Of a DNA stretch of 64,000 bases, positions 162 through 36,404 are shown in pieces (positions within the stretch are counted from its first letter, which is position 1; the number at the start of each line of letters is the position of its first letter). The stretch is taken from IMG/VR virus record IMGVR_UViG_3300037313_001869, positions 288,001-352,000 of that record; one strand, given 5' to 3'. Under the pieces are notes generated by a model. The model ran no database searches. It saw only the letters and a program-made list of their open reading frames with translations, and was not told the DNA's origin. Source of the DNA: a virus (taxonomy: Duplodnaviria > Caudoviricetes). The position numbers and the translations under genes were made by a program.

Positions 162-237
162 TGGTGGACCCACGGGGATTTGAACCCCGATCGACCGGGT
201 AAGAACCGGCTGCTCTACGCTGTTGAGCTATAGGTCC
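162..237 (-). tRNA. tRNA-Lys(CTT)
   Basis: Cloverleaf, loop TTCTTAC, GTTCAAATC T-loop, encoded CCA. Confidence 0.9.
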
Positions 238-238
238 G

Positions 239-314
239 TGGTTGGGGTGCTAGGACTCGAACCTAGACTTGGACGGCATCAGAAACCGTTGCCCTACCAT
301 TAGGCGACACCCCA
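239..314 (-). tRNA. tRNA-Gln(CTG)
   Basis: Cloverleaf, loop TTCTGAT, CCA end. Confidence 0.9.
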
Positions 315-362
315 AGAACTTCACAAAGATACACGGCGCCGGCCTGGCTGTCCAGACCGTTG

Positions 363-437
363 TGGCGCCCCCGAAGGGAATCGAACCCTCCTCGACGGAT
401 CGACAATCCGCTCGCCTCACCAGATGCGTACGGGGGC
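363..437 (-). tRNA. tRNA-Asp(GTC)
   Basis: Cloverleaf, loop TTGTCGA, GCCA end. Confidence 0.9.
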
Positions 438-440
438 AAA

Positions 441-677
441 CTACTTGATGCGAGCCTTCGTGGTCGACACCTCGACCATACGCAGCTCGACGATCTCCCA
501 GGTGGCGGGGATCTTCTTCGCCTCGCCGGGGTACTGACCCCGGCAGTAGAGCTTCAGATGGGCATCGATCTGCTGCTTCGAGGTCCAAGCCTTGCCGGTC
601 TTCGTCCACGAGGGGCAGTACCCACCCGTGGAAAACAAGCCGGTCTTGGTGTCTCGGATCTTGAAGATGCTGTCCAT
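441..677 (-). CDS. hypothetical protein
   Basis: ORF between tRNAs; start MDSIFK preceded by GGTGTA motif and GAGG. Confidence 0.7.
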   Translation of the reverse strand: MDSIFKIRDTKTGLFSTGGYCPSWTKTGKAWTSKQQIDAHLKLYCRGQYPGEAKKIPATWEIVELRMVEVSTTKARIK

Positions 678-695
678 CCTCAAGCTATACACCAA

Positions 696-774
696 TGGCG
701 CAGCGTACGGGATTTGAACCCGTGGTCTTCACCGTGACAGGGTGACGGGGACGGCCAGACTCCCCTAACGCTGC
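696..774 (-). tRNA. tRNA-Asp(GTC)
   Basis: Cloverleaf, loop CTGTCAC, GCCA end. Confidence 0.9.
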
Positions 775-779
775 AAGTT

Positions 780-1241
780 TCAGTAGTCGTAGTGCCCCCG
801 AGACTGCGGGGCCGGCAGCTTGTAGCCCTTCAGCCAGGCGCGGTTCTTCTTGCTGTGGGTGTACTTCGAGAAGTAGTTCCACGCCCGCGTCGAGCCAGAA
901 CCCGAGACCCTGTCCTTCTCCCGGAACGCTTCCACGTCCCGCTCGAAGCGGCTCGGAGGGGGCAGGTTGCCCTCGGTGAGATAGAGAAGCTCCTCGGCCC
1001 CCGTGCCCGGGTACAGCTCGTGGGCGTGGACGATCATGCCGTAGCCCCCGAACATGTTCGTGCAGACCATCTCGTTGACGGTCACCTCCTTGTCGAGGAT
1101 GGCTGTGAGCTGGTCCAGCTCCTCGTGGGTGAGGAGCCGGTACGCCTTGACCGACACAGGCGAGTCCTTGGCCTTGTGGTTCGCCGGCCAGAGCGACTCA
1201 TTCAGGTTTTGCAGCCAGACCCGGTCTTCCTCGGAGAGCAT
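780..1241 (-). CDS. hypothetical protein (PSRFER motif)
   Basis: ORF with SD GGAGG and CGGTGTA upstream. Confidence 0.75.
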   Translation of the reverse strand: MLSEEDRVWLQNLNESLWPANHKAKDSPVSVKAYRLLTHEELDQLTAILDKEVTVNEMVCTNMFGGYGMIVHAHELYPGTGAEELLYLTEGNLPPPSRFERDVEAFREKDRVSGSGSTRAWNYFSKYTHSKKNRAWLKGYKLPAPQSRGHYDY

Positions 1242-1268
1242 GGGCCCTCCTACACCGGGGCCGGGACC

Positions 1269-1613
1269 TCAGAGATCCTGATCTTCGAGCGACTCGTAGA
1301 CCCGGGCGAGCATTGTGCGAAGCTGCTTGAGGGCCGGCATCGCCTTGCCGAGCTTCTTGCTCATCTCGTCGAGCTGGTTCTTGGAGATGTTCGGCCCCGC
1401 CCCCTCGTGCTTGGGGAGGTGGACAATCGCCTCGGTGACGAGACCGGGCACGTCCCCCAGGATCGAAGTCACGTAGTGGAGCTGCTGGAGCGCCTCTTCG
1501 AGGGCGTCGGTGTTCTTCGACGCCTGCTTCGCTTGGTACTGGTCGACCAGGTCATAGGCCGCCGAAGGGTTGGTCTCGGCAAGGTCCGAGGCACGCTTGA
1601 GGATCTTGTCCAT
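1269..1613 (-). CDS. hypothetical helical protein
   Basis: Start MDKILK; the longer ORF overlaps tRNA-Arg. Confidence 0.7.
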   Translation of the reverse strand: MDKILKRASDLAETNPSAAYDLVDQYQAKQASKNTDALEEALQQLHYVTSILGDVPGLVTEAIVHLPKHEGAGPNISKNQLDEMSKKLGKAMPALKQLRTMLARVYESLEDQDL

Positions 1614-1647
1614 GGTCGTGCCTCTACCGTCCGATAAAAGAAATTTG

Positions 1648-1721
1648 TGCCCCCGGCAGGAGTCGAACCTGCTGAAAAACGCTTTAGGAGAGCGTTGCCT
1701 TGTCCGTTCGGCCACGAGGGC
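1648..1721 (-). tRNA. tRNA-Arg(CCT)
   Basis: Cloverleaf, loop CTCCTAA; no encoded CCA. Confidence 0.88.
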
Positions 1722-1723
1722 AG

Positions 1724-2209
1724 TCAGAGAGGGTCTTCCCGGTCGAAGCGGCTCGGAGGCGGCGGGGCCTCGGGCTTCGGCTTGGGCGGGTCGATCTTGC
1801 TCACGATGACCTGGTCGGACCAGATCGAGGCGATGCTAGCCCGAGCCGGAATGTCCTGGCGGACAGGCATCGACCCCACGCGCTCTGGGTTCCCCGTAAG
1901 GTACACTGTCCCGGGGGCCACAACGGGACTGGAGATGGCCGAAACCGCCTCGTTGAAGATACGGTCGATGACCGGGAACACATCGCCGTTCTGGTTGGGC
2001 TCGGACCGCCCCCGAAGGGTCTCGACGACCTCTTCGGACCCGACCGACCGGATGTGCTGAACGGGAGCGCGCTCGACCGGCCGATCGGCCCCGATGACTG
2101 TGAGGGTCTCCGGCCGGGGGAGACCGAACTGCTCGTGGAGGTACCTGTCGGCAGCCTCCCGGAAAAACCTCAGCAAGGCGGCCCGAGTGGCTTCGGAAGG
2201 GGGCGGCAT
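1724..2209 (-). CDS. hypothetical protein (C-terminal SRFDREDPL)
   Basis: ORF preceded by CGGTGTA motif. Confidence 0.7.
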   Translation of the reverse strand: MPPPSEATRAALLRFFREAADRYLHEQFGLPRPETLTVIGADRPVERAPVQHIRSVGSEEVVETLRGRSEPNQNGDVFPVIDRIFNEAVSAISSPVVAPGTVYLTGNPERVGSMPVRQDIPARASIASIWSDQVIVSKIDPPKPKPEAPPPPSRFDREDPL

Positions 2210-2492
2210 CGAAGGGATCTACACCGCCCCCGCCGGGCTCACCACCAGGTCTGGCCGTTCTTCACCGCCTCGGGCGGGTTCCAGCCGAGGTGGGGGCTCG
2301 CCGAGAGCATCGAAGAAACCGGCCTCGCCGTGGCCCGCTTGAGCTTCACCAGCTCCTTCGCCAGGGCTTGCATGAGGGGCCGCTCGGAAACCTTGAAAGT
2401 CGTATGCTCGTTCATCTACGTCTCCTATAGGGGGCCTATAATAAAGAGACTAGAAGGGAACGACCCGGTTGTTTTGTTGAAGAACGCCCGGC

Positions 2493-2984
2493 ATGATGGG
2501 CCTTCTCGAAGTCAGGACGGCGCCCGGCAAGGGCCGGGGGGTGTACGCGGGGCAAGCCTACGGCAAGGGCCTGGAGGTGCTTCAGTTCGAGGGGCAGGTC
2601 GTTCGCCGGAGCGAGATCCCCGACCCTCTGCCGCCCGAGGACGACCACTTCTTGCAGTTCGGCCCCGACAGCTACCTCGGGCCCTCGGGCGGAATCGACG
2701 ACCTCGTCAACCACGCCTGCGACCCCAACTGCGCCGTGCTCATCACCCCCGGCCGGGTCTCGCTCGTCGCGATCCGAACCATCGAGGACGGCGAGGAGGT
2801 GACGTTCGACTACTCCCTAACGAGCCTGGAGCCCCCGGACCAGTGGCGGCTCGACTGCCGATGCGGATCGGCGGGCTGCCGCAGGGTCGTCACGGGCTTT
2901 CTGTGGCTCCCCCGATCAGAGCAAGAGCGGCTCGTCCAAGCCGGCCTCGTGCCGCCCTACGTCTGCCAGGCGGCGGGTCTCTGA
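2493..2984 (+). CDS. SET-domain protein-lysine methyltransferase
   Basis: GKGRGVYA, VNHACDPNC, GEEVTFDY, post-SET CRCGSAGCR. Confidence 0.92.
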   Translation: MMGLLEVRTAPGKGRGVYAGQAYGKGLEVLQFEGQVVRRSEIPDPLPPEDDHFLQFGPDSYLGPSGGIDDLVNHACDPNCAVLITPGRVSLVAIRTIEDGEEVTFDYSLTSLEPPDQWRLDCRCGSAGCRRVVTGFLWLPRSEQERLVQAGLVPPYVCQAAGL

Positions 2985-2987
2985 ACA

Positions 2988-3064
2988 TGGGGTGGGCGGC
3001 GGGAATCGAACCCGTCCTTCCGAGGGTCACAGCCTCGTGCCTTCACCAGATGGCTACGCTCACC
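2988..3064 (-). tRNA. tRNA-His(GTG)
   Basis: Loop CTGTGAC, G-1:C73, CCA. Confidence 0.92.
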
Positions 3065-3102
3065 ATGTAGGACTCGCAGGGCGTCAACGTTCCCCACGAA
3101 CC

Positions 3103-3189
3103 CGGCGGAAACAGGAGGAGTCGAACCTCACCCCGTGAGGGGCAGCCCGAGTAGCAATCGGGTGTCGCGCCGCCGCGACCTCAGTTTCC
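3103..3189 (-). tRNA. tRNA-Ser(GCT)
   Basis: Loop TTGCTAC, long variable arm, G73; atypical D arm. Confidence 0.85.
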
Positions 3190-3441
3190 AAGTACCTCTT
3201 TACGGAACCGTTCCAGACCTTGCCGGATGAGCTGCTCGGCCTCGTCGTGGGGCATGTGACTGGCCGCCGCCGGGCTATCCCCGTAGGTGCTCTCGATGCT
3301 CCAAAGCCCGTTCGGCGTCTCGACTTCGAGCGACCATCGTTGCCAGCGGGCGCGGAAGTACCACGGGAGCCCCTCGATCTCCCCCTCCCCTTGGACAGGG
3401 CAGCGGCCGAAAACGAAGATGGGTTTTGGTTGGGTTTCCAT
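3181..3441 (-). CDS. hypothetical protein
   Basis: ORF between two tRNA-Ser genes. Confidence 0.65.
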   Translation of the reverse strand: METQPKPIFVFGRCPVQGEGEIEGLPWYFRARWQRWSLEVETPNGLWSIESTYGDSPAAASHMPHDEAEQLIRQGLERFRKEVLGN

Positions 3442-3443
3442 AG

Positions 3444-3528
3444 CGGAAGACGGAGTAATCGAAACTCACACCCTTGCGAGTGCTCTTGGTTTTCGAGGCC
3501 AGACCCCGCCCTGCGGAGTTCGTCTTCC
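3444..3528 (-). tRNA. tRNA-Ser(CGA)
   Basis: Loop CTCGAAA, long variable arm, G73; mismatches in anticodon stem. Confidence 0.78.
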
Positions 3529-3553
3529 ATGTGCCCCTTACGGGGCGAAGGGC

Positions 3554-3799
3554 TCACTCGCGCGAACCCGTCAGACGGTCGACCAGGTAGCCGAGACTCC
3601 GGCCGTCCTGCTCGTCCTCGCTGGTCGAGAAGCCGTAGAACGTGTCAACGCCCTCGTGCCTCTCGCCCGCGTCATCGACGATGACCCCACTGCTTGTGAG
3701 GCCAACCGCCGCGAACGCCTGCTGTGCTGCCTCGACGCTCTGAAACTGCATCTCGGTCGTACAGCAGCCGCAACCTTGCTTGACGTAGATCGTGATCAT
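3554..3799 (-). CDS. hypothetical protein
   Basis: ORF with strong SD AAGGAGG. Confidence 0.7.
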   Translation of the reverse strand: MITIYVKQGCGCCTTEMQFQSVEAAQQAFAAVGLTSSGVIVDDAGERHEGVDTFYGFSTSEDEQDGRSLGYLVDRLTGSRE

Positions 3800-3845
3800 G
3801 GGGTGCCTCCTTCAAGGACCCGTGCCTCTCACTCGGCCCCATGAT

Positions 3846-4322
3846 CTAGAACGGCAAGCTGAGTTGCGCGCCTGATTCTTCGATGTCCTCCGGCCCTTCG
3901 TCAAGGCCGGGGTTCTGCATCTTCCAGAGGAGCGGCAGGAGCAAGTACAGCTCTTGCCGGGCCCGGTCGCTATCGTAGGGCTTGGCCCGCTTGGCGGCCA
4001 CGACGTGCCGGACGACCCTTCCGCAGACTTCGAGAAGGCCCCACCCCTGGGGCAGCTCCTCGGGCTTGATGATGCCCTTCGGGGTCATGAAGTAGCGCGA
4101 CTGGCCCATGCCCACCCGGTGCCTCGCGAGCTTGTGCTTGTCCCGGAGAAAATCCGAGCGGCTCACCTTGCACTCGACGAGGATCGACCAGCCCCTCTTC
4201 CACCCGATCGCGTCGGGCAGCTCGTAGACCATGGTGCTGTAGGGCTCGCCCAAGGCCACGTAGCATCGCTCGCTCTTCAGGAGCCAGCGGACGGCCCTCG
4301 CGACCAGCTCCTTGTGGGTCAT
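3846..4322 (-). CDS. PD-(D/E)xK nuclease-fold protein (MmcB-like)
   Basis: PDAIG...ILVECKVSRSDFLRD motif. Confidence 0.7.
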   Translation of the reverse strand: MTHKELVARAVRWLLKSERCYVALGEPYSTMVYELPDAIGWKRGWSILVECKVSRSDFLRDKHKLARHRVGMGQSRYFMTPKGIIKPEELPQGWGLLEVCGRVVRHVVAAKRAKPYDSDRARQELYLLLPLLWKMQNPGLDEGPEDIEESGAQLSLPF

Positions 4323-4350
4323 ACCCAGGGCGCCGGCACAGAAGGAACCT

Positions 4351-4425
4351 CGGTCAGGGAGGCGGGAATCGAACCCGCTAGGTCCTGGTTCCAAACCAGG
4401 CGGCCTACCTTAGACCTTCTCCCTG
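4351..4425 (-). tRNA. tRNA-Pro(TGG)
   Basis: Cloverleaf, loop TTTGGAA, C1:G72. Confidence 0.88.
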
Positions 4426-4603
4426 AGGTGAGGCGACCGAGGGCCCTCGTGAGAGAGTCCGCACGGCCGCCTCTGGGCGATATACAGCAAGCCCCGAGGT
4501 CCCAGAGCTAGCGAAGCTAGGTAGGCCCTCGAAGAACCACGCCCGGCCCGAAGACCGAGGATGCTGCGCCCAACCCCCTTGCGGGGGCTATCACGGGGGG
4601 CTT

Positions 4604-4678
4604 TGGTAGGTACGGGCAGAGTCGAACTGCCATCCCATCCTTATCAGAGATGAGTTCTTACCGTTGAACTACGTACCC
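4604..4678 (-). tRNA. tRNA-Ile(GAT)
   Basis: Cloverleaf, loop CTGATAA, ACCA. Confidence 0.9.
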
Positions 4679-5175
4679 AAGAGCTTCTTGTATCTGCCCT
4701 GAACGGCAGCGGGGGAGACCCCAGCCGCCTTGGCGATCGTCGCCCACGAGACCCCGTCCTTGCGAAGAGCAAGAACGTCGACCCCATCCCAGCTCCCTCG
4801 GTGCGTCGAGAGGCGCTTACGCGCCAAGGTCGCAGCCGCTTTTTGGGGAGCTAGAGCCTGCTCTCTCAGGGTGGAGAACAGGGCCGGATCGAAGCGCGGG
4901 ATGTCCTGGGGAAGCTGCCGATACCCCGCATGAACTTCACGGTGGCAACGGCAACAGAGCAGAACGCATTTCTCGACCTCGGCTGCCAGCTTCTCAAAAG
5001 AAGCCGTAGTGGCCCAAGACGAAACCCCGAGGTCCTTCTCTTTCGGGTCGAGGTGGTGGAACTCCAACGCCTCGATGCACGAGTCGTAGGAGCAACAGCC
5101 GCATCGGCCCCCAAAAGACTGGGTCAAGAGTTGCTTGACCCGCTTCCTCCACGCCTTGACATTTCTGTACGGCAT
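4669..5175 (-). CDS. HNH endonuclease
   Basis: CxxC...LEFHHLDP...KCVLLCCRCHREVH; HTH-like C-terminus. Confidence 0.85.
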   Translation of the reverse strand: MPYRNVKAWRKRVKQLLTQSFGGRCGCCSYDSCIEALEFHHLDPKEKDLGVSSWATTASFEKLAAEVEKCVLLCCRCHREVHAGYRQLPQDIPRFDPALFSTLREQALAPQKAAATLARKRLSTHRGSWDGVDVLALRKDGVSWATIAKAAGVSPAAVQGRYKKLLGT

Positions 5176-5219
5176 AGGTTGCGATTGTACCGCAACCACA
5201 ACCTGACGCAAGTTCATCC

Positions 5220-5374
5220 CTCAGGACAAAGGGGGTGAAAGACATCATGCCCTTGCGGGCTCCGGTGCGTCTGCCAGTTCCGCCACACCTCTCTCGCGAG
5301 AGGAGGAGGGACTCGAACCCTCAAGCCCTTTCGGGCGCCGGTTTTGCGAATGTAGTCCTTCGAGCATTCCTGAG
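5220..5374 (-). ncRNA. Y-RNA-like ncRNA Y1 with circularly permuted type II tRNA module
   Basis: Terminal stem CTCAGGA-ATG / TTG-TCCTGAG; order variable arm, T arm, acceptor stem closed by GCGA, D arm. Confidence 0.8.
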
Positions 5375-5381
5375 AAACGAG

Positions 5382-5464
5382 TGCGCAAGGGGGGACTTGA
5401 ACCCCCAAGCCCTTTCGGGCGCTAGCACCTCAAGCTAGTGCGGTTGCCTTTTCGCCACCTGCGC
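5382..5464 (-). tRNA. tRNA-Leu(GAG)
   Basis: Loop TTGAGGT, long variable arm, A73. Confidence 0.9.
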
Positions 5465-5474
5465 GTACTACCTA

Positions 5475-5743
5475 CCTCGACAAAGGGTGTGAAGAGAAGG
5501 CTCTTTCGAGCCGCCTGCGCATTGTGGGTCCCCTTTCGGGGATACCCACCGCTCGCCCCGCACCTTCGACTCACTACCCTATCCCCCACCAGGGAGGAGA
5601 GCAGATCCTCAGGTTGCCCTGAGTCAAGGAGTCTCTGACCCGGCGTGTTACCGCTTGGGATGCTGGTGCCGTCGCTAGTCCCTCACGGGAACATCGCTAC
5701 CTTGGGGCCGTTATGGATGTGTACTCCTCACGATCATTCGAGG
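5475..5743 (-). ncRNA. Y-RNA-like ncRNA Y2 (about 270 nt, multi-hairpin module)
   Basis: Terminal stem CCTCGA-ATG / TTG-TCGAGG; GGAGTACAC motif; several GNRA hairpins. Confidence 0.72.
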
Positions 5744-5764
5744 CACCCCCCTTGCGGGGGGCAG

Positions 5765-5838
5765 TCTGGGTGGGGCGACTCGAACGCCCAACCTCCGCGT
5801 CCCGAACGCGGCGCTCTACCAGGTTGAGCCACACCCAG
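5765..5838 (-). tRNA. tRNA-Pro(CGG)
   Basis: Cloverleaf, loop TTCGGGA. Confidence 0.9.
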
Positions 5839-5893
5839 ATGTTGACGGGCCCCGAAGGGGCCCGCTAGGCCGAAGAGACGGCCGAAGTAATCA

Positions 5894-6024
5894 CGATCTG
5901 ACAAAGAACGCAAAGAGCTTTTCGTGTGCTGCCTCTACACCACCCCGGCATAGAGAGCCGGAGCCAGGAATCGAACCTGGGCCACGTCTGGGCAAGAGAT
6001 GGACTCCTCACTGCATTCAGATCG
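5894..6024 (-). ncRNA. YrlA-like Y RNA Y3
   Basis: Stem CGATCTGA-ATG / TTG-TCAGATCG; T arm CCAGGTTCGATTCCTGG, loop-closed acceptor stem, D arm. Confidence 0.82.
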
Positions 6025-6028
6025 CTTG

Positions 6029-6113
6029 TGCTCAGGGCGGGACTCGAACCCGCACGCCACAAAGGGCCGCCGCTTCTGAGACGGCGTTGTCTGCCAAATT
6101 CCATCACCTGAGC
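6029..6113 (-). tRNA. tRNA-Leu(CAG)
   Basis: Loop CTCAGAA, long variable arm. Confidence 0.9.
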
Positions 6114-6297
6114 GTGATTGCTAGTTCCACCCGGCCGGCGGCCGGGTACGGTAAGCACCCTGCTGCTCGGCCCGGCGAATGGCCCGCTCGACCTGCACGG
6201 CAGGTGGCGGGAAGACGGTCTCTCGTACGACGGTAACCGCAGTCCGGAGAAGGAGGCGGAGAAGAGCGGACATACCGTACGATACACCGCCGAAGGC

Positions 6298-7452
6298 TCA
6301 GCCGGCCTTCATCTTGTCCTCGACGAGCGCCTGAAGCTCGCTCGCGTGCTGGACGAACTGGGTGACCATCTGCATCCGGCCGACCTGCACCACCGAGGAC
6401 GAGAGGTGGATCGAGAGGTTGTAGAGACGCTCGGCCTGCTGCCGGACCTCGTCGGCGATGGGCGAGTGCTTGTAGAGGTTGGCGAAGCCGCCGATCTCGC
6501 TCGTGAGCTGGTAGACCGTCTTGCTCGACACGCCCATGCCGCTCGTCGCAAGGTCCCTCAGGGTCGTGTTGGCGTCGCCGAAGTCCTTGATGAGCGAGGC
6601 GAACTTCTCCTTCAGCTTCGCCGCGATCTCCTTGTCCCTGGTCTTCAGGAAGCCCCGCAGGACCGAAATCACCGTCTCGTGCAGCTCGCCGAAAGGGTTC
6701 TTCCCGTGACCGATGAGGTCGAGGGGAGGCGTCGTCAGAACGGTCTTGTAGAGGTTCGAGACGCGCGTGAGCCGGGCCTTCGGGGCCGCGAGCCCGATCG
6801 AGGTGAGGTCGGCGCCGAGGTCCTTGATGTGCCCACCGAGCTTGCGGATCTCCCGCTTGACGGCGCCTTCGGCGTCGTGGGCCTCGGCCCAGAGATCCTC
6901 GGACATGTCGACGAGGCGCGTGGTCTTCTTTTCGAGCAGCTCGTAGGGCGTCTTGTCGACGAAGTCCGGGTCGAGGTTCTTCGGGGCCCGCTGGATGCTC
7001 CCAAGGGCGGCGAGGTAGTGGCTCGTCGGTACCTGGGCGAGCTGCGAGTAGAAGGTCCAGGAGTGGTTGTCGCCGCTTCGCGAGTAGGAGATCGACCCGG
7101 CGTTCATCTTCTGGAGGTCCTCGTGCAGGTCCTTCATGAACTTGAGCGCCTTCGCCAGGCTGTCGTTGACATGGGCGAGGGTCGAGATCCCTTGCACGTC
7201 CTCGGCCGCCTTGATGGGCTCGGCGAGGTCCTTCGCGGCTTCCTTCGTCAGGATGGGCTTGTCGGTCCGGCCGAAGTGCTTCTTCCAGAACTCCGAGTAG
7301 ACCGCCCTGGCCTCCTCGATCTTGTCCATCTGGGCGCCGAACCCGATCGAAGCCGCCTCAGCGACGCGGACGCTGGCGAGACGGTGCCTCGCGGCGATGA
7401 CGTAGCTCTGACGGACGAGGGTAGCTTGCTCTTTCGCGACCTTGCTCGGCAT
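6298..7452 (-). CDS. hypothetical helical protein, possibly virion-associated
   Basis: 384-aa ORF with protein-like composition; no family motif recognised. Confidence 0.8.
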   Translation of the reverse strand: MPSKVAKEQATLVRQSYVIAARHRLASVRVAEAASIGFGAQMDKIEEARAVYSEFWKKHFGRTDKPILTKEAAKDLAEPIKAAEDVQGISTLAHVNDSLAKALKFMKDLHEDLQKMNAGSISYSRSGDNHSWTFYSQLAQVPTSHYLAALGSIQRAPKNLDPDFVDKTPYELLEKKTTRLVDMSEDLWAEAHDAEGAVKREIRKLGGHIKDLGADLTSIGLAAPKARLTRVSNLYKTVLTTPPLDLIGHGKNPFGELHETVISVLRGFLKTRDKEIAAKLKEKFASLIKDFGDANTTLRDLATSGMGVSSKTVYQLTSEIGGFANLYKHSPIADEVRQQAERLYNLSIHLSSSVVQVGRMQMVTQFVQHASELQALVEDKMKAG

Positions 7453-7483
7453 GGTACCTGGTAAGGCGCGATAGAAACAGTCT

Positions 7484-7558
7484 CGGTCAGCCTGGCGGGA
7501 ATCGAACCCGCTGCCTCTTCGTCCCCAACGAAGCGCGCTACCGATGCGCTACAGGCTG
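7484..7558 (-). tRNA. tRNA-Pro(GGG)
   Basis: Cloverleaf, loop TTGGGGA. Confidence 0.9.
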
Positions 7559-7584
7559 ATGGTGGCCCCGAAGGGCCGAGACGG

Positions 7585-7932
7585 TCACGGCTTCTGCGCA
7601 AGCCCGAGAAGGGCGATGCGGGCCTCGTCGATGTCGCAGACCGCCTTCTCGAAGTACGCCTTCGACTTCTCGGCCGTCGCGCGGGTCTTGGCGAGGTCAC
7701 GTTCGGTCTGGGTGATGAACGAGGCGGCAAGCCCCCTCGCGGCCTCCTCCAGATCGGGCCCCTCTCCCTGGCAGTAGAAGACCGCCCCCACGTCGCCCTC
7801 CTCGGGGCGCATCGTGACGAGAAAGACGCTGTCCTTCGCGACGAAGGAGACGCCAAAGCGGAACTTCCGGCCCGAGTACGCCTTGTGGGCCTGCTCGGAG
7901 AGGGTGCGGATCACGGTGTCGATGAGCGCCAT
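7585..7932 (-). CDS. hypothetical protein
   Basis: ORF preceded by CGGTGTA motif. Confidence 0.75.
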   Translation of the reverse strand: MALIDTVIRTLSEQAHKAYSGRKFRFGVSFVAKDSVFLVTMRPEEGDVGAVFYCQGEGPDLEEAARGLAASFITQTERDLAKTRATAEKSKAYFEKAVCDIDEARIALLGLAQKP

Positions 7933-7951
7933 GGGCGCCTTCTACACCGAT

Positions 7952-8028
7952 CGGTGGCTAGGGCCGGAATCGAACCGGCTACACCCGGATTTTCAATCCA
8001 GTGCTCTACCAGAATGAGCTACCTAGCC
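7952..8028 (-). tRNA. tRNA-Phe(GAA)
   Basis: Cloverleaf, loop TTGAAAA. Confidence 0.9.
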
Positions 8029-8035
8029 GTAGATT

Positions 8036-8168
8036 CGTAGCGACAAGGGGCGACAAGACCGTTTTTACGCTGGCTACCGTTACCACACCCCGCGTCAGGT
8101 TGCGGGGCCGGGAGTCGAACCCGGGCTTCGTCCTTGAAATGGTGGAGTCCCATCAGGCATTCGCTACG
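8036..8168 (-). ncRNA. YrlA-like Y RNA Y4
   Basis: Stem CGTAGCGA-ATG / TTG-TCGCTACG; T arm CCGGGTTCGACTCCCGG, acceptor CCCCGC-loop-GCGGGG, D arm. Confidence 0.82.
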
Positions 8169-8245
8169 GTGGGTCGTCCCGGGATCGAACCGGGTTCTTC
8201 GGCTTTTCAGACCGACGCTAAGATCACCAGACCAGCTCACGACCC
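8167..8245 (-). tRNA. tRNA-Phe(GAA), second copy
   Basis: Cloverleaf, loop CTGAAAA. Confidence 0.87.
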
Positions 8246-8251
8246 GTTACA

Positions 8252-8408
8252 AGCGTCCAACAAGGGGGGTGCCCAGACACATGACCCCCACGAACCCGGC
8301 TTTCACCCCGGACGAAGGGGACACCCCCACCTGAACCATCGAGCAGGGAGGAAGGTTTGCTCGCCGGTTCAGGTGGGGGCGTGTAGTCCAAACGTGTATT
8401 CGGACGCT
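8252..8408 (-). ncRNA. Y-RNA-like ncRNA Y5 (long hairpin with CU-rich loop)
   Basis: Stem AGCGTCCGA-ATA / TTG-TTGGACGCT; GGACTACAC motif. Confidence 0.7.
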
Positions 8409-8410
8409 CG

Positions 8411-8485
8411 TGGCACGGCAGGGGGGAATCGAACCCTAGACCTTCCGGAGTTTTGGAGGCTCCGTTACACCCTGTGTTCTGCCGT
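8411..8485 (-). tRNA. tRNA-Trp(CCA), truncated D arm
   Basis: Loop CTCCAAA, G73 and CCA; very short D arm. Confidence 0.75.
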
Positions 8486-8490
8486 AAAAG

Positions 8491-8754
8491 TTATGACTTC
8501 TGCTTCTCGAACTTGATGCTGGCGTACGTCCCGAGGAAGCCGCCCACGGCGGCTGCCAGAAGGGTCCTCTTGTCGTGCATGACGAGGAGCATGTTCGTGC
8601 CCGCGAGGAGCACGATGCCCGACGAGATGAGCGAGGCCCGTACGGCCTTCTTCTCGGCGGTGGCGATGATGTACGCGGCCCAGGCCGCATCGACCACGAT
8701 TGCCACCGCGAACGCCAGAGCGAACGGCCAAGAAGACTCTACCCAACCAGGCAT
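8491..8754 (-). CDS. small membrane protein
   Basis: Three hydrophobic segments. Confidence 0.75.
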   Translation of the reverse strand: MPGWVESSWPFALAFAVAIVVDAAWAAYIIATAEKKAVRASLISSGIVLLAGTNMLLVMHDKRTLLAAAVGGFLGTYASIKFEKQKS

Positions 8755-8783
8755 CCCCCAAAGCTACCACGAACCTGAGGTAG

Positions 8784-8866
8784 GGCTCGACAATGAAGGT
8801 GAGAGACCTTGGCCTAGGCGTTACCCCAGGTACCCTAACAGGTGGAGTCCCTCTTGCATTCGAGCC
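8784..8866 (-). ncRNA. Y-RNA-like ncRNA Y6 (short)
   Basis: Stem GGCTCGA-ATG / TTG-TCGAGCC; GGACTCCAC motif. Confidence 0.7.
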
Positions 8867-8868
8867 AG

Positions 8869-8940
8869 GCGCGGAGGCAGGACTTGAACCTGCAACCTTC
8901 GGGTTATGAGCCCGACAAGCTACCATTGCTCCACTCCGCA
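8869..8940 (-). tRNA. initiator tRNA-fMet(CAT)
   Basis: Loop CTCATAA with three consecutive G:C pairs in the anticodon stem; non-Watson-Crick 1:72. Confidence 0.85.
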
Positions 8941-8941
8941 G

Positions 8942-9013
8942 CGCCTCGTGGGGGTTTCGATCCCCCTTCAGCCCCTTGAAAGGGGGCCATCCTAGCCAGT
9001 AGACGAACGAGGC
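8942..9013 (-). tRNA. tRNA-Glu(TTC)
   Basis: Cloverleaf, loop CTTTCAA; variant T loop. Confidence 0.85.
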
Positions 9014-9358
9014 TCAGGTCTTCGGCCGGCGCCGCTCGAACTCCCGGATCTTGTGGCAGTTCGAGCAGACCAGCTCGCACTTTTCGATCTCTTCGACCAG
9101 AGCCTCCAAGGACGGGGCCGCGTAGGCGTCACCGACGTTGAAGAGCTTGGTCGAGGGGTCGACGTGGTCGAACTCCAGAACGTACACCGGCCACTGGTAC
9201 TCGCAGTCGGTGCAGAAGGGGTTCTCCCTCTTCAAGGTCTGGACGAACTCCCGGACCGCCTCGACCAGCTCGTCCTTGCGAAAGGGCCGCGTCGAGGCTC
9301 GAAGGAACTTCCGACCTTGGAGGGTGTTACCTCGGCCGGGGCGTCGCTTGCGCTGCAC
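9014..9358 (-). CDS. HNH-like endonuclease
   Basis: CTDC...LEFDHVDP...KCELVCSNCHKIR; start uncertain. Confidence 0.8.
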   Translation of the reverse strand: MQRKRRPGRGNTLQGRKFLRASTRPFRKDELVEAVREFVQTLKRENPFCTDCEYQWPVYVLEFDHVDPSTKLFNVGDAYAAPSLEALVEEIEKCELVCSNCHKIREFERRRPKT

Positions 9359-9381
9359 ACCCAAGCCGGACGATAAGAGAA

Positions 9382-9446
9382 GGAGCGACAAGCCGTTTGC
9401 CTAGAGAGACGTTTGTAGAGGTGTACTCCAGGCTTTCATTCGCTCC
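9382..9446 (-). ncRNA. Y-RNA-like ncRNA Y7 (minimal)
   Basis: Stem GGAGCGA-ATG / TTG-TCGCTCC; GGAGTACAC motif. Confidence 0.68.
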
Positions 9447-9448
9447 AG

Positions 9449-9523
9449 CGATCCCAGCGGGATTTGAACCCGCGTTGTCCGCGTGAGAGGCGGGCGTCCT
9501 AGACCGGGCTAGACGATGGGACC
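9449..9523 (-). tRNA. tRNA-Glu(CTC)
   Basis: Cloverleaf, loop CTCTCAC. Confidence 0.9.
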
Positions 9524-9700
9524 AAGATACCCCGGCGGGCTTTTACCTCCGCCAGGGCGGCACAAGCTCGAAGCGGTCACTTCGAGGGTCCTCCCCGCTA
9601 GGGGCGTGCTTTGGACCTAGGAGCAGGGTTGTAACACCCGCTCACGAAGACGCAAGAAAAAAGCCCGTGGGCGACTCTCAGGGGTCTTCGTCTAGGGAAA

Positions 9701-9767
9701 GGATCGACAAGGGGACGGGCAAGACCGGTACTTTTTCATGGTGTAGTCCTGACCCAACATTCGATCC
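9701..9767 (-). ncRNA. Y-RNA-like ncRNA Y8 (minimal)
   Basis: Stem GGATCGA-ATG / TTG-TCGATCC; GGACTACAC motif. Confidence 0.7.
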
Positions 9768-9844
9768 GGTTGCGGGCACGGGGAATCGAACCCCGCTGTC
9801 TCCGGCGTATGAAACCGGCGTAGAAGCCGCTTTACTCGCCCGCA
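9767..9844 (-). tRNA. tRNA(CAT), Met or Ile2
   Basis: Loop TTCATAC; atypical D arm. Confidence 0.8.
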
Positions 9845-9845
9845 G

Positions 9846-9914
9846 CACGTCCAGAAGGAATCGAACCCTCGCCGCCGGAGTTGGAAACCGGTTGGTCACC
9901 TTGACCTTGGACGT
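9846..9914 (-). tRNA. tRNA-Trp(CCA), short D loop
   Basis: Best-paired anticodon stem gives loop TTCCAAC, G73; Gly(TCC) reading pairs worse. Confidence 0.65.
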
Positions 9915-9962
9915 AGATGCCCTCCGAGACCCAAGGTACAGAACCAGAAGTCCCGGAAGGAG

Positions 9963-10046
9963 TGGGCCGCCAGGGAATCGAACCCTGCTAGTCCGCGAAG
10001 GACGACACGTTTACAGCGTGTTTGAGCTTCCAAGCTCCCGCGACCC
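9963..10046 (-). tRNA. tRNA-Tyr(GTA)
   Basis: Loop CTGTAAA, long variable arm. Confidence 0.87.
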
Positions 10047-10093
10047 GAATGACCCCCTTGCGGGGGTGGAGTTGAATCGGCCCCCTTGGGGAC

Positions 10094-10169
10094 CGGAGCT
10101 GGCGATGGGAGTCGAACCCACCTGGTCCTCTTTACGAAAGAGGTGCGCTCCCACGAGTGCTACACCAGC
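10094..10169 (-). tRNA. tRNA-Thr(CGT)
   Basis: Cloverleaf, loop TTCGTAA. Confidence 0.88.
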
Positions 10170-10224
10170 ATTCACCGGGGCTGCAACCCCGGGCCATCGT
10201 ACCGTTGCAGCAGTACGACAGCAG

Positions 10225-10296
10225 AGCCCCGTCCCGGAATCGAACCGAGTTTTCCGCGTTACAAAGGCGGCGCCTCACCATTTAGGCGTAAGGGGC
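10225..10296 (-). tRNA. tRNA-Thr(TGT)
   Basis: Cloverleaf, loop TTTGTAA. Confidence 0.85.
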
Positions 10297-10391
10297 AATC
10301 AGCTCCCGTAAGGGAGCGGCCCTGCGCCCGAAGGAGCAGGGGGTGAGAAGTCAGCACCAGTCCCTAACTTCATGAAGGACCGAATGCCTAG

Positions 10392-10464
10392 CTCCGAGGG
10401 AGGGAGTCGAACCCCCGCTGACAGAAGTTAACAGCTTCTCGCTCTACCGCTGAGCTACCCCGGA
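10392..10464 (-). tRNA. tRNA-Asn(GTT)
   Basis: Cloverleaf, loop CTGTTAA. Confidence 0.9.
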
Positions 10465-10687
10465 ATGACTGTAAAGAACACTGACCGGTCGACCACTTGG
10501 GGAGGTCGGGACGGTCGGGGACGTACACGAGCGCCTCGTCGTCGGGCAGCTCCTCGATGAGCACGTCATCGAAGGGCACGCCGAACGCCGTAGCATACTT
10601 CCGCCGCAGCTTCGCGGCTTCGGTTCGGCAGTTGGCGCTCACCCCCCTCCTAGACACCGGAGGGGGCGGGACTCTGACAGAGATTTT

Positions 10688-10903
10688 TCAGGCGTCGCCA
10701 CGGGCCGCGCCAGGAAAGCGCAGAGCGTGGGAGTGCTTGGCGAACTTCTCGCCGAAGAGGGTCTTGATCATCCAGTAGTCCTCGGCCCTCTCGGCCGCCT
10801 CGCACTCGGGGCAGCCCTTCATATGCTCGACGTGGGCAAGGATCTCCTCGTCCGAAGAGGTGGCAGTCGGGGCGGGGTAGGTGCAGGGAGCGATGGTCTT
10901 CAT
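10688..10903 (-). CDS. small hypothetical protein (HxxxCxxC)
   Basis: ORF; HMKGCPEC possible Zn site. Confidence 0.6.
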   Translation of the reverse strand: MKTIAPCTYPAPTATSSDEEILAHVEHMKGCPECEAAERAEDYWMIKTLFGEKFAKHSHALRFPGAARGDA

Positions 10904-10964
10904 GCCCCATCAGTCGCAAGAACCCCCGCCGAGATTACACCCCTCGGTCGATTTTTCTCTGCCG

Positions 10965-11041
10965 TGGCTGTGGGGGTAGGAGTCGAACCTACGGAATCGC
11001 GGTTAACAGCCGCGCCGATGTACCGGCACATCAGCCCCACA
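10965..11041 (-). tRNA. tRNA-Asn(GTT), second copy
   Basis: Loop CTGTTAA, GCCA end; atypical D arm. Confidence 0.85.
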
Positions 11042-11311
11042 AAAAGAGAGGCTCGCCCCCGCCTCACGGCGGAGACAAGCGCCCTCCCGGACCCGGTGTT
11101 ACCCAGGCCCTTCTTTCTTGTAAACCATGCAGGGGAGGTGCGTGCTCCTGCCTGTCTCGCCCGCTGGAGCCCCCAGTAGAGTCGGGGTCGATCACCGCAA
11201 CGAGACGTTTCGGCCCTAACCCCCCAAACGGGGAGCGTCGGTGGCCGTGGCAAGCCGTCCTAGCCCTGTCAGATTGTCAAAGGTCAGTCCCCGCGCCCGA
11301 AGGAGGGGGAG

Positions 11312-11387
11312 TGGAACCAGGAGCACGACTCGAACGCGCCTTCCGAGGGTCAGAACCTCGTGTCTTTGCCGGATAGACGATCCTGGT
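11312..11387 (-). tRNA. tRNA-Gln(CTG), second copy
   Basis: Loop TTCTGAC, CCA. Confidence 0.85.
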
Positions 11388-11402
11388 AGATGCAAACGCT
11401 GA

Positions 11403-11477
11403 TGGTCGGGGGCACGGGAATCGAACCCGCCTCTCTCAGGTTAAGAGCCTGCTGCGTCACCTTGACGCCAACCCCCA
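11403..11477 (-). tRNA. tRNA-Lys(CTT), second copy
   Basis: Loop CTCTTAA, ACCA; short D loop. Confidence 0.85.
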
Positions 11478-11484
11478 ATAGGGT

Positions 11485-11559
11485 CGGTGGGACGCACCAG
11501 AATCGAACTGGCCCCTTGAGGATTAAAAGTCCCCTGCACCACCTTGGTGCTAACGTCCC
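11485..11559 (-). tRNA. tRNA-Lys(TTT)
   Basis: Loop CTTTTAA; short D loop. Confidence 0.85.
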
Positions 11560-11746: not shown

Positions 11747-11995
11747 GAAGGCCGCCTCTGGTCGGAACCAGGGCGGCCTTCGCGAGCGAGATCAGGTCTC
11801 TCGTCTCTCTCGGCCGCCCTAGTTACCCACCTCCGGGTTGGCATGATTCGAGGTGGGATACGAGGGCGTCTGAATCTGGGCAAAACCGGCAAGGAGGACG
11901 CGCTTCTCTTCCCCGGCGCTCAGAACGCACCAATCCGCCTTCGCCATCGAGGCGACCAGGGCGGTTTTGGTGGAGAGCGAGAGGGTTGAGGACAC
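11747..11995 (-). promoter_or_regulatory. candidate attenuator: 58-aa leader ORF (11995-11819) plus alternative hairpins
   Basis: GGAG SD before GTG; segment 11770-11781 can pair with 11747-11757 or with 11812-11820. Confidence 0.6.
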
Positions 11996-12153
11996 GTAGA
12001 CTCCGAAGAAGGGTTCTGCTGCTGCTCAGGACCACCTAACACCGGGTCGCGAGACCAGCAAGAACTTTCTTACCGGTGGGTGCGAAGGGTAGGCTAAGGT
12101 AAGGCTCGCTAAGCGGGACTTACTCGTCCTGTAGAGACCGAAATATAGAAACT

Positions 12154-12844: not shown

Positions 12845-13465
12845 ATGAACGAGCCCACGACAGCCCAGGTCGAGACCATGCTGAGGACGGCGTCCGACGC
12901 CGCCGGGACGGGCGGGCCCGTCTTCCGGTCGCAGGTCTTCGGCAACCCCTGGGACCGGTTCGTCGAGTCTTGGACGCCCCGGATCTACCGCTTCGTTGCC
13001 GAGGCCCTCGGGCCCTACGGTACCCGCCCGCTGCCCGACATTCTCCCGCTCGCCGAGGGGATGCACGCAGCCGGGGCCACGGCGAGCTTCGACATGCGCT
13101 CGGGTCAGGTGCGGCTCGCCACCTCGACCGAGGGCAACCCGGGCCAGATCCTCGAAAAGCTCTGCCACGAGTTCACCCACGGCGCCCTCGCGAACTTCCC
13201 CGAGGGAGATCCTTTCTACGAAGAGGGGTTCGTCGACTACTCGGTCTGGGTGATGGCGCACGCGCCCATGTGGGGGCAGTTTCGTCAGGCCATGATCGAC
13301 GCGGCGTCCTTCAACATCAAGATGCGCCGCGAGCGGGCTCTCGTCACCCAGACCGACTACGATCGAAAGAGGTGGGCCGGCGGGCTCTACGCCTCGATCG
13401 CCTACGGCCCCATGATCATCGCTCGCCTCCGCAACAAGAAGCTCTCCGAGGACCTGACGTGGTAG
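12845..13465 (+). CDS. putative zinc metallopeptidase-like protein
   Basis: HEFTH...EEG (HExxH). Confidence 0.7.
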   Translation: MNEPTTAQVETMLRTASDAAGTGGPVFRSQVFGNPWDRFVESWTPRIYRFVAEALGPYGTRPLPDILPLAEGMHAAGATASFDMRSGQVRLATSTEGNPGQILEKLCHEFTHGALANFPEGDPFYEEGFVDYSVWVMAHAPMWGQFRQAMIDAASFNIKMRRERALVTQTDYDRKRWAGGLYASIAYGPMIIARLRNKKLSEDLTW

Positions 13466-34393: not shown

Positions 34394-35962
34394 TCAGATT
34401 TCGGTCTTCTCGATCACGTCCACCCAGTGCGAGCCCTCGGCTCCTTCCTGGAACGCCTTCATCACGGTGAAGACCGAGTCCGAGAAGCCGCCGATGTTGA
34501 GGATGTCCTCCCGGTCGGGCGCCTGGCTCGTCGTGTTCGGCACGAGGTCGACGCAGACGAGCCGGCCGTTCGGGCTCTTCACCTGGTCCCAGAGCGCGAG
34601 CGTGTCGGTCGAGCCCGGATGGGAGAAGCCGTACCGCCGTCCCGTCGTCACCCACGACTCCATGTCCGAGACGTAGAGGCCGAAGTCGATCCGCTCCCTC
34701 TGCTGGAGCAGGTGAGCGAGGGGAGCGGCCGTGTTGGTCGCCCCGCCCCGGAAGGCCGCGAGCTTGGCGGCATTCTTGAGCACCGGCTCCTTCGCGTCGA
34801 AGCTCATCGGGTGTACGTCGTGATCGAAGGCGAGCACACGCGCCCTCGGGTTCTTCCGCAGGACCGAGGCCGTGATGAGCGCGGCCACGTCGATGCACCT
34901 CACGTCCGTCGTCGAGCCCTTCCGCTCGCCGGTGATCCGGTTCGTGGTCATCGAGCCGGAAACGTCGGTGAAGACGAACACGTTGCCTTCGAGCACCGGG
35001 ACGTTGTCGATCGAGACTTCCATGGCCGAGTAGAGGGCCTGGACGATGGGACCCGGCATCTTCCCTTCGGTCGCCTTCCAGGCCATGAAGAGCTGGTAGG
35101 GGAACGTCCGGGACCTGCGAACCTGATCGGGGTCGGCGATCCGGCTCGCGAGGAGCGAGACCATGGCCGGGTCCGAAAGGACGCCGTGCCGCTCGAAGGT
35201 CGCGAGGTTCTTCACGGTCTGCGTGAACGTCGCCCGCTCGGCCACCTGCTTCCAGGTCTTCTCGTCGAGCGTGAGGCCCGTCAGCATCTCGAACGGAGCC
35301 TCGGGCAGCTCGCTGCCAGGCTGCTTCCGGAACGCCTCGTACTTGGCCACGATTGCGGGCAGGTGCTCGGCCACCGAGAGCTTCTCACCCCCGAAGCTGA
35401 ACTCTTCCTTGCCGATGAGGTAGCCGAGCAGCGCCGCCCTTTCCTTGGTCGTGGGCCGCGGGTGGGCGAGCTTGATCACGTCACCGATGGAGGGGTTGTT
35501 GCCCATCGAGCCGAAGAAGATCGACCGGTCATCCTTGCCCTCGAACCAGCTCCGGAGAAGCCTCTTCGGGCCCGAGCCGAGCGAGGTCCGGCCAACCGTG
35601 CCGCTCCGCACGATCTGGGCGAAGTTCCGCACCATCCGGCCGTTGTCGATGACCTTGGGGAAGACCCGCGAGAGCATGGCCGGGTCCCGCTTCGAGAGGA
35701 CCGCGCACAGGAAGGCCGGCATGTCCTTCATGAAGCCCTTCTGCCGGGCGTACACGGCCGTCTTCGCGAGGAAGTCGGTCGGCACGGCCATGGCGAGCTG
35801 ACCCACCGTGGCGAGCTGGTCTTCGGCCGAGGTGTAGAAGGTGTTGTTGAAGCATCCGGTCGCGGCCATCTGCGCGAGGGCGTGCTTCTCGCCCATCTTG
35901 AAGGCGAGGCCGCCCGCGGAGTTGAGGACGTTGGCGACGGGCTTGTTCTTCGGGGTCTTCAT
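34394..35962 (-). CDS. rsr: Ro60/Rsr TROVE-domain RNA-binding protein
   Basis: NSAGGLAF, ATGCFNNTFY, MKDMPA, FPYQL, vWA MIDAS DVSGSM, SDMESW, IGGFSD. Confidence 0.93.
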   Translation of the reverse strand: MKTPKNKPVANVLNSAGGLAFKMGEKHALAQMAATGCFNNTFYTSAEDQLATVGQLAMAVPTDFLAKTAVYARQKGFMKDMPAFLCAVLSKRDPAMLSRVFPKVIDNGRMVRNFAQIVRSGTVGRTSLGSGPKRLLRSWFEGKDDRSIFFGSMGNNPSIGDVIKLAHPRPTTKERAALLGYLIGKEEFSFGGEKLSVAEHLPAIVAKYEAFRKQPGSELPEAPFEMLTGLTLDEKTWKQVAERATFTQTVKNLATFERHGVLSDPAMVSLLASRIADPDQVRRSRTFPYQLFMAWKATEGKMPGPIVQALYSAMEVSIDNVPVLEGNVFVFTDVSGSMTTNRITGERKGSTTDVRCIDVAALITASVLRKNPRARVLAFDHDVHPMSFDAKEPVLKNAAKLAAFRGGATNTAAPLAHLLQQRERIDFGLYVSDMESWVTTGRRYGFSHPGSTDTLALWDQVKSPNGRLVCVDLVPNTTSQAPDREDILNIGGFSDSVFTVMKAFQEGAEGSHWVDVIEKTEI

Positions 35963-36088
35963 GTTCGTGGATCTCCATGCCCCTCGGGGGAGAGGCCAAA
36001 ACGTGAGGTCGACGTGAGTACACCGCTGACGGACCCCGGCCGCCCGGTCTGACACCCGAAGCGACTTTTCTCGACCCTGGCGATTTTC

Positions 36089-36115
36089 GGAAAAAGCCCG
36101 GGAGCCCGATCGTCT
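36089..36115 (+). promoter_or_regulatory. ECF-like promoter GGAAAA-N16-CGTCT (one of 11 copies)
   Basis: Same spacing at 14450, 23341, 37746 (+) and 19092, 49010, 49466, 61087, 62013, 62490, 63371 (-). Confidence 0.75.
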
Positions 36116-36404
36116 CGGGGCCATGACGACCATCACCCAGTCTCAAGCGAAGCTCCTCCTCTCGGCCAAGGACGACGGCGCCCCCCACGAGAGCTACGGC
36201 GATCCCGAGCCGCTCGTCTCGCTCGGCCTCCTTCACGAGGCCCCCTACTACGACCTCACGCCCCGCGGTCGGGCCCTCGTCGCCCGCTTCGCCTGGGTGG
36301 GCGAGAAGATCGTGATTCGCTGATCTGTCAGAAAAAACATTGAACCCCGGTCGTGTCGGCCGGGGTAAAGACCCGCACCCCGATCCGAAAGAGAGCTGAG
36401 TCCC

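Follow-up and report, generated by a model that had tools for sequence, protein, structure and literature searches.

Why phages and some bacteria hold large tRNA arrays, and when these are expressed, is a long-standing question, and the locus described here raises it for a phage whose array lies behind a short reading frame using every amino acid. The window (the whole stretch analysed, 64,000 nt) corresponds to positions 288001–352000 of a complete phage record of 435,218 bases with direct terminal repeats and 65% G+C, found in soil and rhizosphere assemblies. The stretch occurs without a base difference in two public assemblies, which may be its source. The array comprises 43 tRNA genes on the minus strand, running from genome position 299559 to 266093 (about 33 kb) and serving all 20 amino acids:

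162–11559, minus strand: in-window part of the tRNA array, 27 genes; the rest continues to genome position 266093
11559–11486, 11477–11403 and 11387–11312, minus strand: the first tRNAs, Lys(UUU), Lys(CUU) and Gln(CUG)

A blastn search against GenBank phages returned only tRNA matches and short chance matches. The RNA polymerase beta, sigma70 and tubulin families had no match in the phage genome, so there is no hint of a phage nucleus, which would uncouple translation, and a cytoplasmic host polymerase is the simplest assumption for transcription of the array. RtcB had no match in the phage either. Two tRNA-like matches missed by ARAGORN, at 3106–3190 and 8414–8486 on the minus strand, are probably a Ser tRNA with a long arm and a Met tRNA of initiator type. 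An HNH-like ORF within the array (9014–9391, minus strand), with homologs at varying spots in the arrays of relatives, is probably a homing endonuclease, and one relative has a tmRNA gene within its array (L024:1873). A 22 nt sequence at 11135–11114, resembling a −35 box, has an inverted repeat at genome position 264498–264519, near the far end of the array. The sequence-only reading had called the array one of tRNAs and Y-RNAs; the second half of that label is weakly backed, as the YrlA-like match (8034–8167, minus strand) scores 23 bits against a cut-off of 69. A Ro60/TROVE gene is present at 34394–36136, and a similar-looking gene, judged by eye, lies beside the array of a relative (L020).

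A leader cassette, present once in the phage genome, sits 190–440 nt upstream of the first tRNA. It was proposed from the sequence to be an attenuator, and consists of a promoter, a translatable leader and a set of alternative RNA helices:

12071–12033, minus strand: sigma70-type promoter with A-rich UP element; −35 box at 12061–12056 and −10 box at 12038–12033, by a matrix trained on relatives
12004–12001, minus strand: Shine-Dalgarno sequence GGAG
11995–11819, minus strand: 58-codon leader ORF that uses every amino acid and 31 of 45 codon classes; its TAG stop overlaps segment A
11857–11826, minus strand: hairpin P, a candidate pause hairpin
11824–11812, minus strand: segment A, putative antiterminator strand, covarying with B
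11811–11783, minus strand: variable inner stem-loop between A and B; it folds, and its sequence is free
11782–11766, minus strand: segment B, the shared strand and 5′ arm of the terminator-like hairpin
11762–11746, minus strand: segment C, 3′ arm of the B:C hairpin, with covariation and folding
11745–11736, minus strand: tail D, a split U-tract (UU, then a conserved CGUU), with predicted 3′ ends near 11744–11740

We consider it likely, from the comparisons given below, that this is a translation-coupled transcription attenuator, which probes how well the cell can decode and controls access to a supplementary tRNA array. Its layout (leader, stop over A, mutually exclusive A:B and B:C helices, array downstream) is kept with compensatory changes in phages and in Polyangiales.

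The motif CGGTGT, previously singled out as promoter-like, is not significant alone (251 copies in the genome), and owes its meaning to being the extended −10 end of a 17 nt spacer in the sigma70-type promoter, with a predicted start near 12026. A matrix trained only on relatives places this promoter second on the entire minus strand and top within the array. Its style is that of Polyangiales rRNA promoters (A-tract, TTGAC, TAGGTT). The exact promoter pattern and a 221 aa upstream ORF, used as queries, returned no viral relatives.

The ORF was confirmed to run from a GTG start to a TAG stop, with all 20 amino acids among its 58 residues even when codon 1 is disregarded. The GGAG lies 5 nt 5′ of the start, and the same GGAG-GTG arrangement is seen in relatives L005, L007, L011, L015, L099 and L127. 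All 20 residues would be reached by chance in 0.45% of cases under a Markov model of the DNA of the ORF itself, and 57-residue windows of this phage's proteins reach them in 2.6% of cases, so that the content of this single ORF would be of modest significance, the weight coming from its conservation across homologs. The peptide has no Pfam or PHROG match, and its exact sequence is absent from a collection of 15 billion proteins. A tRNA with a CUA anticodon is encoded outside the array (43929–44021, minus strand; called Pyl by ARAGORN, 58 bits, amber suppressor-like) and, if active, could read through the leader's TAG.

Similar leader and hairpin layouts were sought in related phages and found at the head of the arrays of about 35 loci. 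Homologs were collected by neighbouring gene and RNA motif, not by amino-acid content. With the neighbouring gene (12845–13465) as query, 39 loci of related jumbo phages were obtained; most have a tRNA array with a common head (Tyr, Lys-UUU, Lys-CUU, Gln) directly preceded by a homolog of 11880–11735. The set grew to 37 distinct cassettes with metagenomic copies obtained by motif searches and a profile. Most of 120 metagenome pattern matches were due to chance and were removed by profile score. Relative L018 has an array for which the cassette was not found. The leader peptides are 47–72 residues long with free indels, and nearly all copies have an open frame, of 47–69 codons, that ends at A. 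Their peptides have diverged to a median identity of 31%, the conserved motifs being a mid-peptide Trp-Cys and the C-terminal residues. Peptide statistics leave out L030/L031, two near-identical copies with a one-base shift and a stop 14 nt further on, and the truncated L048.

The amino-acid content of these leaders is far from random. All 20 amino acids, codon 1 excluded, are found in 27 of 33 leaders, where 0.5 would be expected from a Markov model and 0.7 from pooled composition, and the other five frames of the same leaders give 0–1. At least 19 are present in 32 of 33, and 10 of 12 leaders in a subset below 38% identity have all 20. As start codons were partly set by rule, the last 46 codons were also counted alone, and 19 of 33 were still complete. 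Trp, Tyr and Met occur about once each with almost no variance, at positions that shift between leaders. Trp is single in 33 of 34 leaders; the 20 with Trp at a common site all have only that one, and the other 14 have Trp elsewhere. Cys, Asp, Phe, His, Ile and Asn mostly occur once and Lys and Glu mostly twice, and residue counts track the number of tRNA species. Comparison of these sequences thus shows an ORF under selection, which retains every amino acid whatever its position.

Selection appears to reach the codons as well. Among leaders with two or more Lys, both AAA and AAG are used in 29 of 31 (18 expected), and both Glu codons (GAA, GAG) are used in 31 of 33 (19 expected). The mean number of codon classes per leader is 35.5 of 45, against 32.0 ± 0.3 when synonymous codons are redrawn. 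NAU codons are strongly preferred (TAT 94%, GAT 88%, CAT 79%, AAT 77%, versus 6–18% in phage genes), GGU is also dominant, and NNC dominates in four-codon boxes. Under wobble rules the favoured codons are those most dependent on one tRNA, and NAU codons are read by queuosine-bearing tRNAs, so leader codon choice may reflect wobble and queuosine dependence. The earlier proposal that loss of any tRNA would stall the ribosome is overstated for the window copy, as its leader misses ten tRNA species of the phage. The missing codons with phage tRNAs are GCA, GGA, TTG, CCA, CAA, ACA, AGA, AGG, CGA and CGG.

Segments A (11820–11812), B (11781–11770) and C (11757–11747) have exactly the sequences first described, and the region folds better than shuffled sequences (z −4.3 and −3.8). 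When the two conformers were folded both proposed helices formed, each longer than had been stated. A:B is 13 bp (11824–11812 with 11778–11766), enclosing the inner stem in a domain of −38.6 kcal/mol, and B:C is 16 bp (11782–11746, −32.1 kcal/mol). The end of the ORF holds a further conserved helix that had been overlooked, hairpin P, with 8 bp in the window (11857–11850 with 11833–11826) and 6–14 bp in all 32 scorable homologs. Its second outer pair is Watson-Crick in 29 of 32, versus 18 when shuffled (maximum 25), with compensatory changes.

For the covariation counts, the core of each segment served as anchor. Pairing of position A-1 with B is found in 31 of 35 copies (19 G-C, 12 A-U), versus 17 when shuffled (maximum 28), and for B:C the values are 33 of 35 versus 20 at B-3 and 34 of 35 versus 24 at B-4. 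Watson-Crick cells number 277 versus 247 ± 5 for A:B, driven by A-1, and 304 versus 268 ± 5 for B:C, in shuffle controls that ignore relatedness. The A-to-B distance is 29–48 nt across homologs. In fold predictions, A:B forms in 32 of 33 transcripts ending just after B, and B:C forms in 33 of 33 when A is masked by a ribosome at the stop. Relative to the A core, the stop is at −2 to −5 in 30 of 33 leaders, where masking of A fits by geometry, and at +6 to +11 in three. Both helices and the position of the stop are therefore maintained, as far as comparison of the copies can show. In full-length RNA at equilibrium with no ribosome, B:C wins in 22 of 33 copies, the window copy included, so read-through must rest on folding order: A:B would have to form first and persist until polymerase has passed the tail.

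At the tail, the proposed output could be read in another way. The same sensor could act after transcription, with the switch deciding whether B:C is cut by a nuclease or whether Rho is loaded, rather than intrinsic release; we consider this unlikely. The B:C hairpin is strong, and the caveat of a weak U-tract, raised at the outset, holds for most homologs: a variable stretch separates UU from CGUU, U frequency after the G-C stem is 0.97 and 0.86 at positions 1–2 and 0.6–0.97 at positions 8–11, and only about six copies carry a run of 4–7 U. Besides this weak, split tract, a post-transcriptional output would suit the G-C-rich helix of 14–16 bp formed by B:C and a tail with an invariant CGUU that could base-pair with either A or C. 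However, a plain terminator U-run is found in L021, L024–L027 and L030, covariation of tail D with A is marginal (pairing with A or C gives 148 versus 136 ± 5, maximum 150), and a conserved C|G lies 6–7 nt past the stem with a G at −10, like a pause or release site. This G-10/C-1/G+1 pattern, present at the C|G in 28 of 33 copies, is the consensus pause pattern of E. coli, and may stand in for a full U-tract.

What the leader senses could also be read differently. That it reports in general on how fast or how well coupled translation is, as affected by antibiotics, ribosome load or shut-off, with codon variety averaging the signal and tRNA loss not the selected trigger, seems quite improbable to us. 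A is free without a ribosome, so any translation failure would give read-through, and ribosome antibiotics elicit a response from whiB7 (PMC10274678) and from the Anabaena trn operon (PMC8421152). Yet leaders keep exactly one each of Trp, Tyr and Met while their positions shift, and this, together with the paired AAA/AAG and GAA/GAG codons and the narrowed leaders found before small tRNA clusters, points to selection on codon identity. A response to translation speed is compatible with attenuation as a side effect. An active peptide (an arrest peptide or small protein) followed by an ordinary terminator would account for the few conserved motifs, the mid-peptide Trp-Cys and the C-terminal residues. 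The latter, however, coincide with the hairpin P sequence, and low identity, variable length (47–72), free indels and lack of a family match make this very improbable. We give equally little credence to a ribosome-independent RNA sensor with an incidental ORF, such as a T-box riboswitch. The GGUGG before A does recall the T-box bulge, but UGGNACC is found in only 5 of 33 copies, the UGG varies with compensation in hairpin P, Rfam T-box models gave no match at E up to 10, there is no Stem I, and every copy has an open ORF under selection. The T-box was rejected on the Rfam result, the 5 of 33 and the compensatory changes in P. A large GOLLD/ROOL-like RNA built on long-range repeats (12063–12037 with 11160–11090) was also rejected, because the upstream arm is untranscribed promoter, Rfam gave no match, and each arm is locally explained. 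Covariance models for GOLLD, ROOL, tmRNA and RNase P RNA gave no match, and the conserved ORF argues against a noncoding RNA.

If attenuation governs the whole array, transcription has to continue well beyond the tail. Between the cassette and tRNA-Asn lie two small reading frames and two further candidate signals:

11667–11653, minus strand: Tyr mini-ORF remnant, four codons with TAT behind GGGAG; motif common to L001, L004 and L028
11609–11550, minus strand: Lys-rich mini-ORF, 19 codons, whose stop is U8-A9-G10 of tRNA-Lys(UUU)
11283–11266, minus strand: rrn-type boxA-like site, unique in the genome, predicted by sequence match
11088–11043, minus strand: long hairpin and U-tract before tRNA-Asn, terminator-like or a processing signal

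The hairpin at 11088–11043 is the sole strong terminator-like site found in the 33 kb array, and most relatives have a hairpin and U-run here. The boxA-like site sits just upstream of it, which suggests that rRNA-type antitermination carries transcription onward; if polymerase were not carried past 11088–11043 in this way, the attenuator would govern only the first three tRNAs. A strict boxA-like pattern is found downstream of 18 of 34 phage leaders, and the window element matches a boxA-like site 162–298 nt before Polyangiales 16S genes. BoxA antitermination is known from rRNA operons, and the phage resembles Polyangiales rRNA leaders in both promoter style and boxA-like sequence. Unlike in rRNA operons, the boxA-like site is placed behind an attenuator and three tRNAs, and its binding of NusB/S10 is putative. 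The boxA-like site is followed by a conserved noncoding element (11265–11156, minus strand), present in at least 12 distinct relatives. It has an invariant motif flanking a covarying hairpin and no Rfam match, and may represent a Y-like RNA or belong to the antitermination signal.

The remnant at 11667–11653 probably derives, judging by its motif, from the Tyr mini-ORF that precedes tRNA-Tyr in relatives. There, a mini-ORF with a conserved TAT runs into tRNA-Tyr(GUA), with Tyr in 14 of 14 (copies in L001, L004, L008, L010, L013, L026, L028, L030 and L033), and in the window phage tRNA-Tyr has moved to 10046–9962. The Lys-rich mini-ORF has a conserved internal hairpin and is also seen in L001, L004, L006, L008, L013, L028 and others. 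Lys-rich ORFs lie upstream of 21 Lys(UUU) genes, and 10 of them end exactly at tRNA position 8. They use AAA more than AAG, though AAA makes up 7% of Lys codons in phage genes. Mini-ORFs with the cognate codon were not seen as a regular feature of tRNAs other than Tyr and Lys. Tyr and Lys tRNAs are those that phages deploy against retron Eco7, PrrC and PARIS (PMC11555353, PMC11464382).

The cassette is not confined to phages. A motif scan of species genomes matched two Byssovorax assemblies, in which the cassette adjoins acyl-CoA dehydrogenase and L,D-transpeptidase genes and occurs near the start of arrays of 33–35 tRNAs. These assemblies (L222, L223) have three attenuator copies in the first 1.5 kb of the chromosomal array, a tandem pair ahead of tRNA-Tyr and a third ahead of the Lys genes. 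A model built from the phage copies matched 19 of 151 Polyangiales genomes, some only at the hairpin, and about 14 of the matches have tRNAs behind the cassette, with leaders mostly of 17–20 residue kinds. One genome has two tandem leaders that jointly use all 20 amino acids, and two copies are on chromosome-sized records. A search of 150 other genomes, sampled across the phylum, did not find the cassette (E 1e-4, strict filters). Since Polyangiales chromosomes use the same cassette, the phage host is likely a Polyangiales myxobacterium.

The leader codons fit the genes downstream. All 20 amino acids are used before full arrays, and the range is narrowed in L224 and L225, where only tRNA-Tyr, -Pro and -Ser follow and the leaders are rich in Ser, Pro and Arg, with 8–9 amino acids missing (tRNAs by ARAGORN in L225, and by ARAGORN plus a Sec/Ser-type Rfam match in L224). 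Comparison of the copies thus shows a match between codons and downstream genes. The same cassette, with leaders of 18–19 residue kinds, occurs at L236:644–900 and L237:587–900 with no tRNA found behind it and with downstream ORFs lacking a Pfam match, so that protein genes, or RNAs that escaped detection, may also be under the control of this family.

Leader-peptide attenuators are well known from trpL, hisL, leuL, thrL, ilvL and pheM, which have runs of one to three codon kinds in 14–32 residues. The phage cassette shares with them a leader to be translated and a hairpin within it and, as proposed, overlapping antiterminator and terminator-like helices and negative feedback on decoding. It differs in using each codon about once, and in that an untranslated leader is predicted to read through, whereas the untranslated trp leader terminates. 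We know of no trpL-type leader attenuator that gates tRNA genes. Such attenuators of amino-acid and synthetase operons are partly reviewed in PMC10274678, which also describes the closest known system, the whiB7/wblC uORF attenuator of Actinobacteria. The whiB7 uORF is long and variable in sequence, uses 19 of 20 amino acids in M. smegmatis and senses many starvations; stalling leads to an antiterminator and read-through, and a single Trp codon confers Trp sensing (PMC10274678), a precedent for one codon being sufficient. The phage leader is alike in its length, variability and broad composition, and in the predicted outcome of stalling. The whiB7 output is a transcription factor, and its uORF is Ala-enriched and lacks several residues in M. 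tuberculosis (PMC10274678), whereas the phage output is the tRNA pool and the leader is selected for completeness down to isoacceptor codons. The cassette falls outside the whiB7 family: tRNA genes follow it, and Ala is about 11%, versus 25–40% (PMC10274678).

Among tRNA arrays, the trn operon (L-array) of Anabaena PCC 7120 resembles the phage array as we read it, being long, horizontally spread, normally silent and induced by translational stress. Its control differs, as a DNA-binding RHH repressor, TrcR, acts at direct repeats in the promoter (PMC8421152, PMC10272220). The phage promoter has no direct repeat inside it among the repeats listed, and the NAR paper on the trn operon does not mention attenuation or a leader. 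The tRNA-Tyr of phage T5 counters retron Eco7, phage tRNA-Lys counters PrrC and PARIS, and tRNA supply rescues translation (PMC11555353, PMC11464382). Tyr(GUA) and Lys(UUU) head arrays here too, and by analogy the phage array may have an anti-defence role. T5, however, uses a strong promoter with no conditional control described (PMC11555353). The literature gave no report of attenuation before tRNA arrays, in a search with thin coverage of subscription journals.

Taken as an attenuator, the cassette would work as follows, where translation, pausing, termination, antitermination and purpose are steps that we infer. Host RNA polymerase would start at the rRNA-like promoter, and a ribosome would load at GGAG-GTG and translate a leader in which selection, judging by the homologs, keeps every amino acid and most classes of isoacceptor represented. 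The polymerase probably pauses at hairpin P for the ribosome to catch up. If all codons are decoded in time, the ribosome at the TAG would cover A, B:C would pair, and transcription would stop near 11742. Should a tRNA be uncharged, cleaved, under-modified or in short supply, or should translation be slowed in some other way, A would be left free to pair with nascent B; C then could not close the hairpin, and polymerase would proceed into the array. From there, the boxA-like site probably brings in the host NusB/S10 antitermination complex for the 33 kb that follow, and the new tRNA would restore decoding, closing the loop.

Such a decoding-failure switch makes ideas of starvation, codon supply and tRNA-nuclease defence testable codon by codon, the leader being a list of what the array is meant to replace. 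The Polyangiales chromosomal copies offer an experimental route that is unavailable with uncultured phages, and a portable reporter of tRNA-pool integrity, 250 nt long, would be useful for finding tRNA-targeting defence systems and translation inhibitors. A broader reading, to which we give somewhat less than even chances, is that the leader takes an evolved census of the tRNA pool at the level of isoacceptors and modification, with one codon for each tRNA species and NAU codons reporting queuosine-type tRNAs. The attenuator would then stand at the top of a three-part system common to myxobacteria and their jumbo phages, in which the Tyr and Lys mini-ORFs, running into their tRNAs, tune these two nuclease-targeted tRNAs singly and rRNA-type antitermination over 33 kb forms the third part. 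In that case the phage would sense any defence that cuts tRNAs, and counter it, with no need for a sensor protein.
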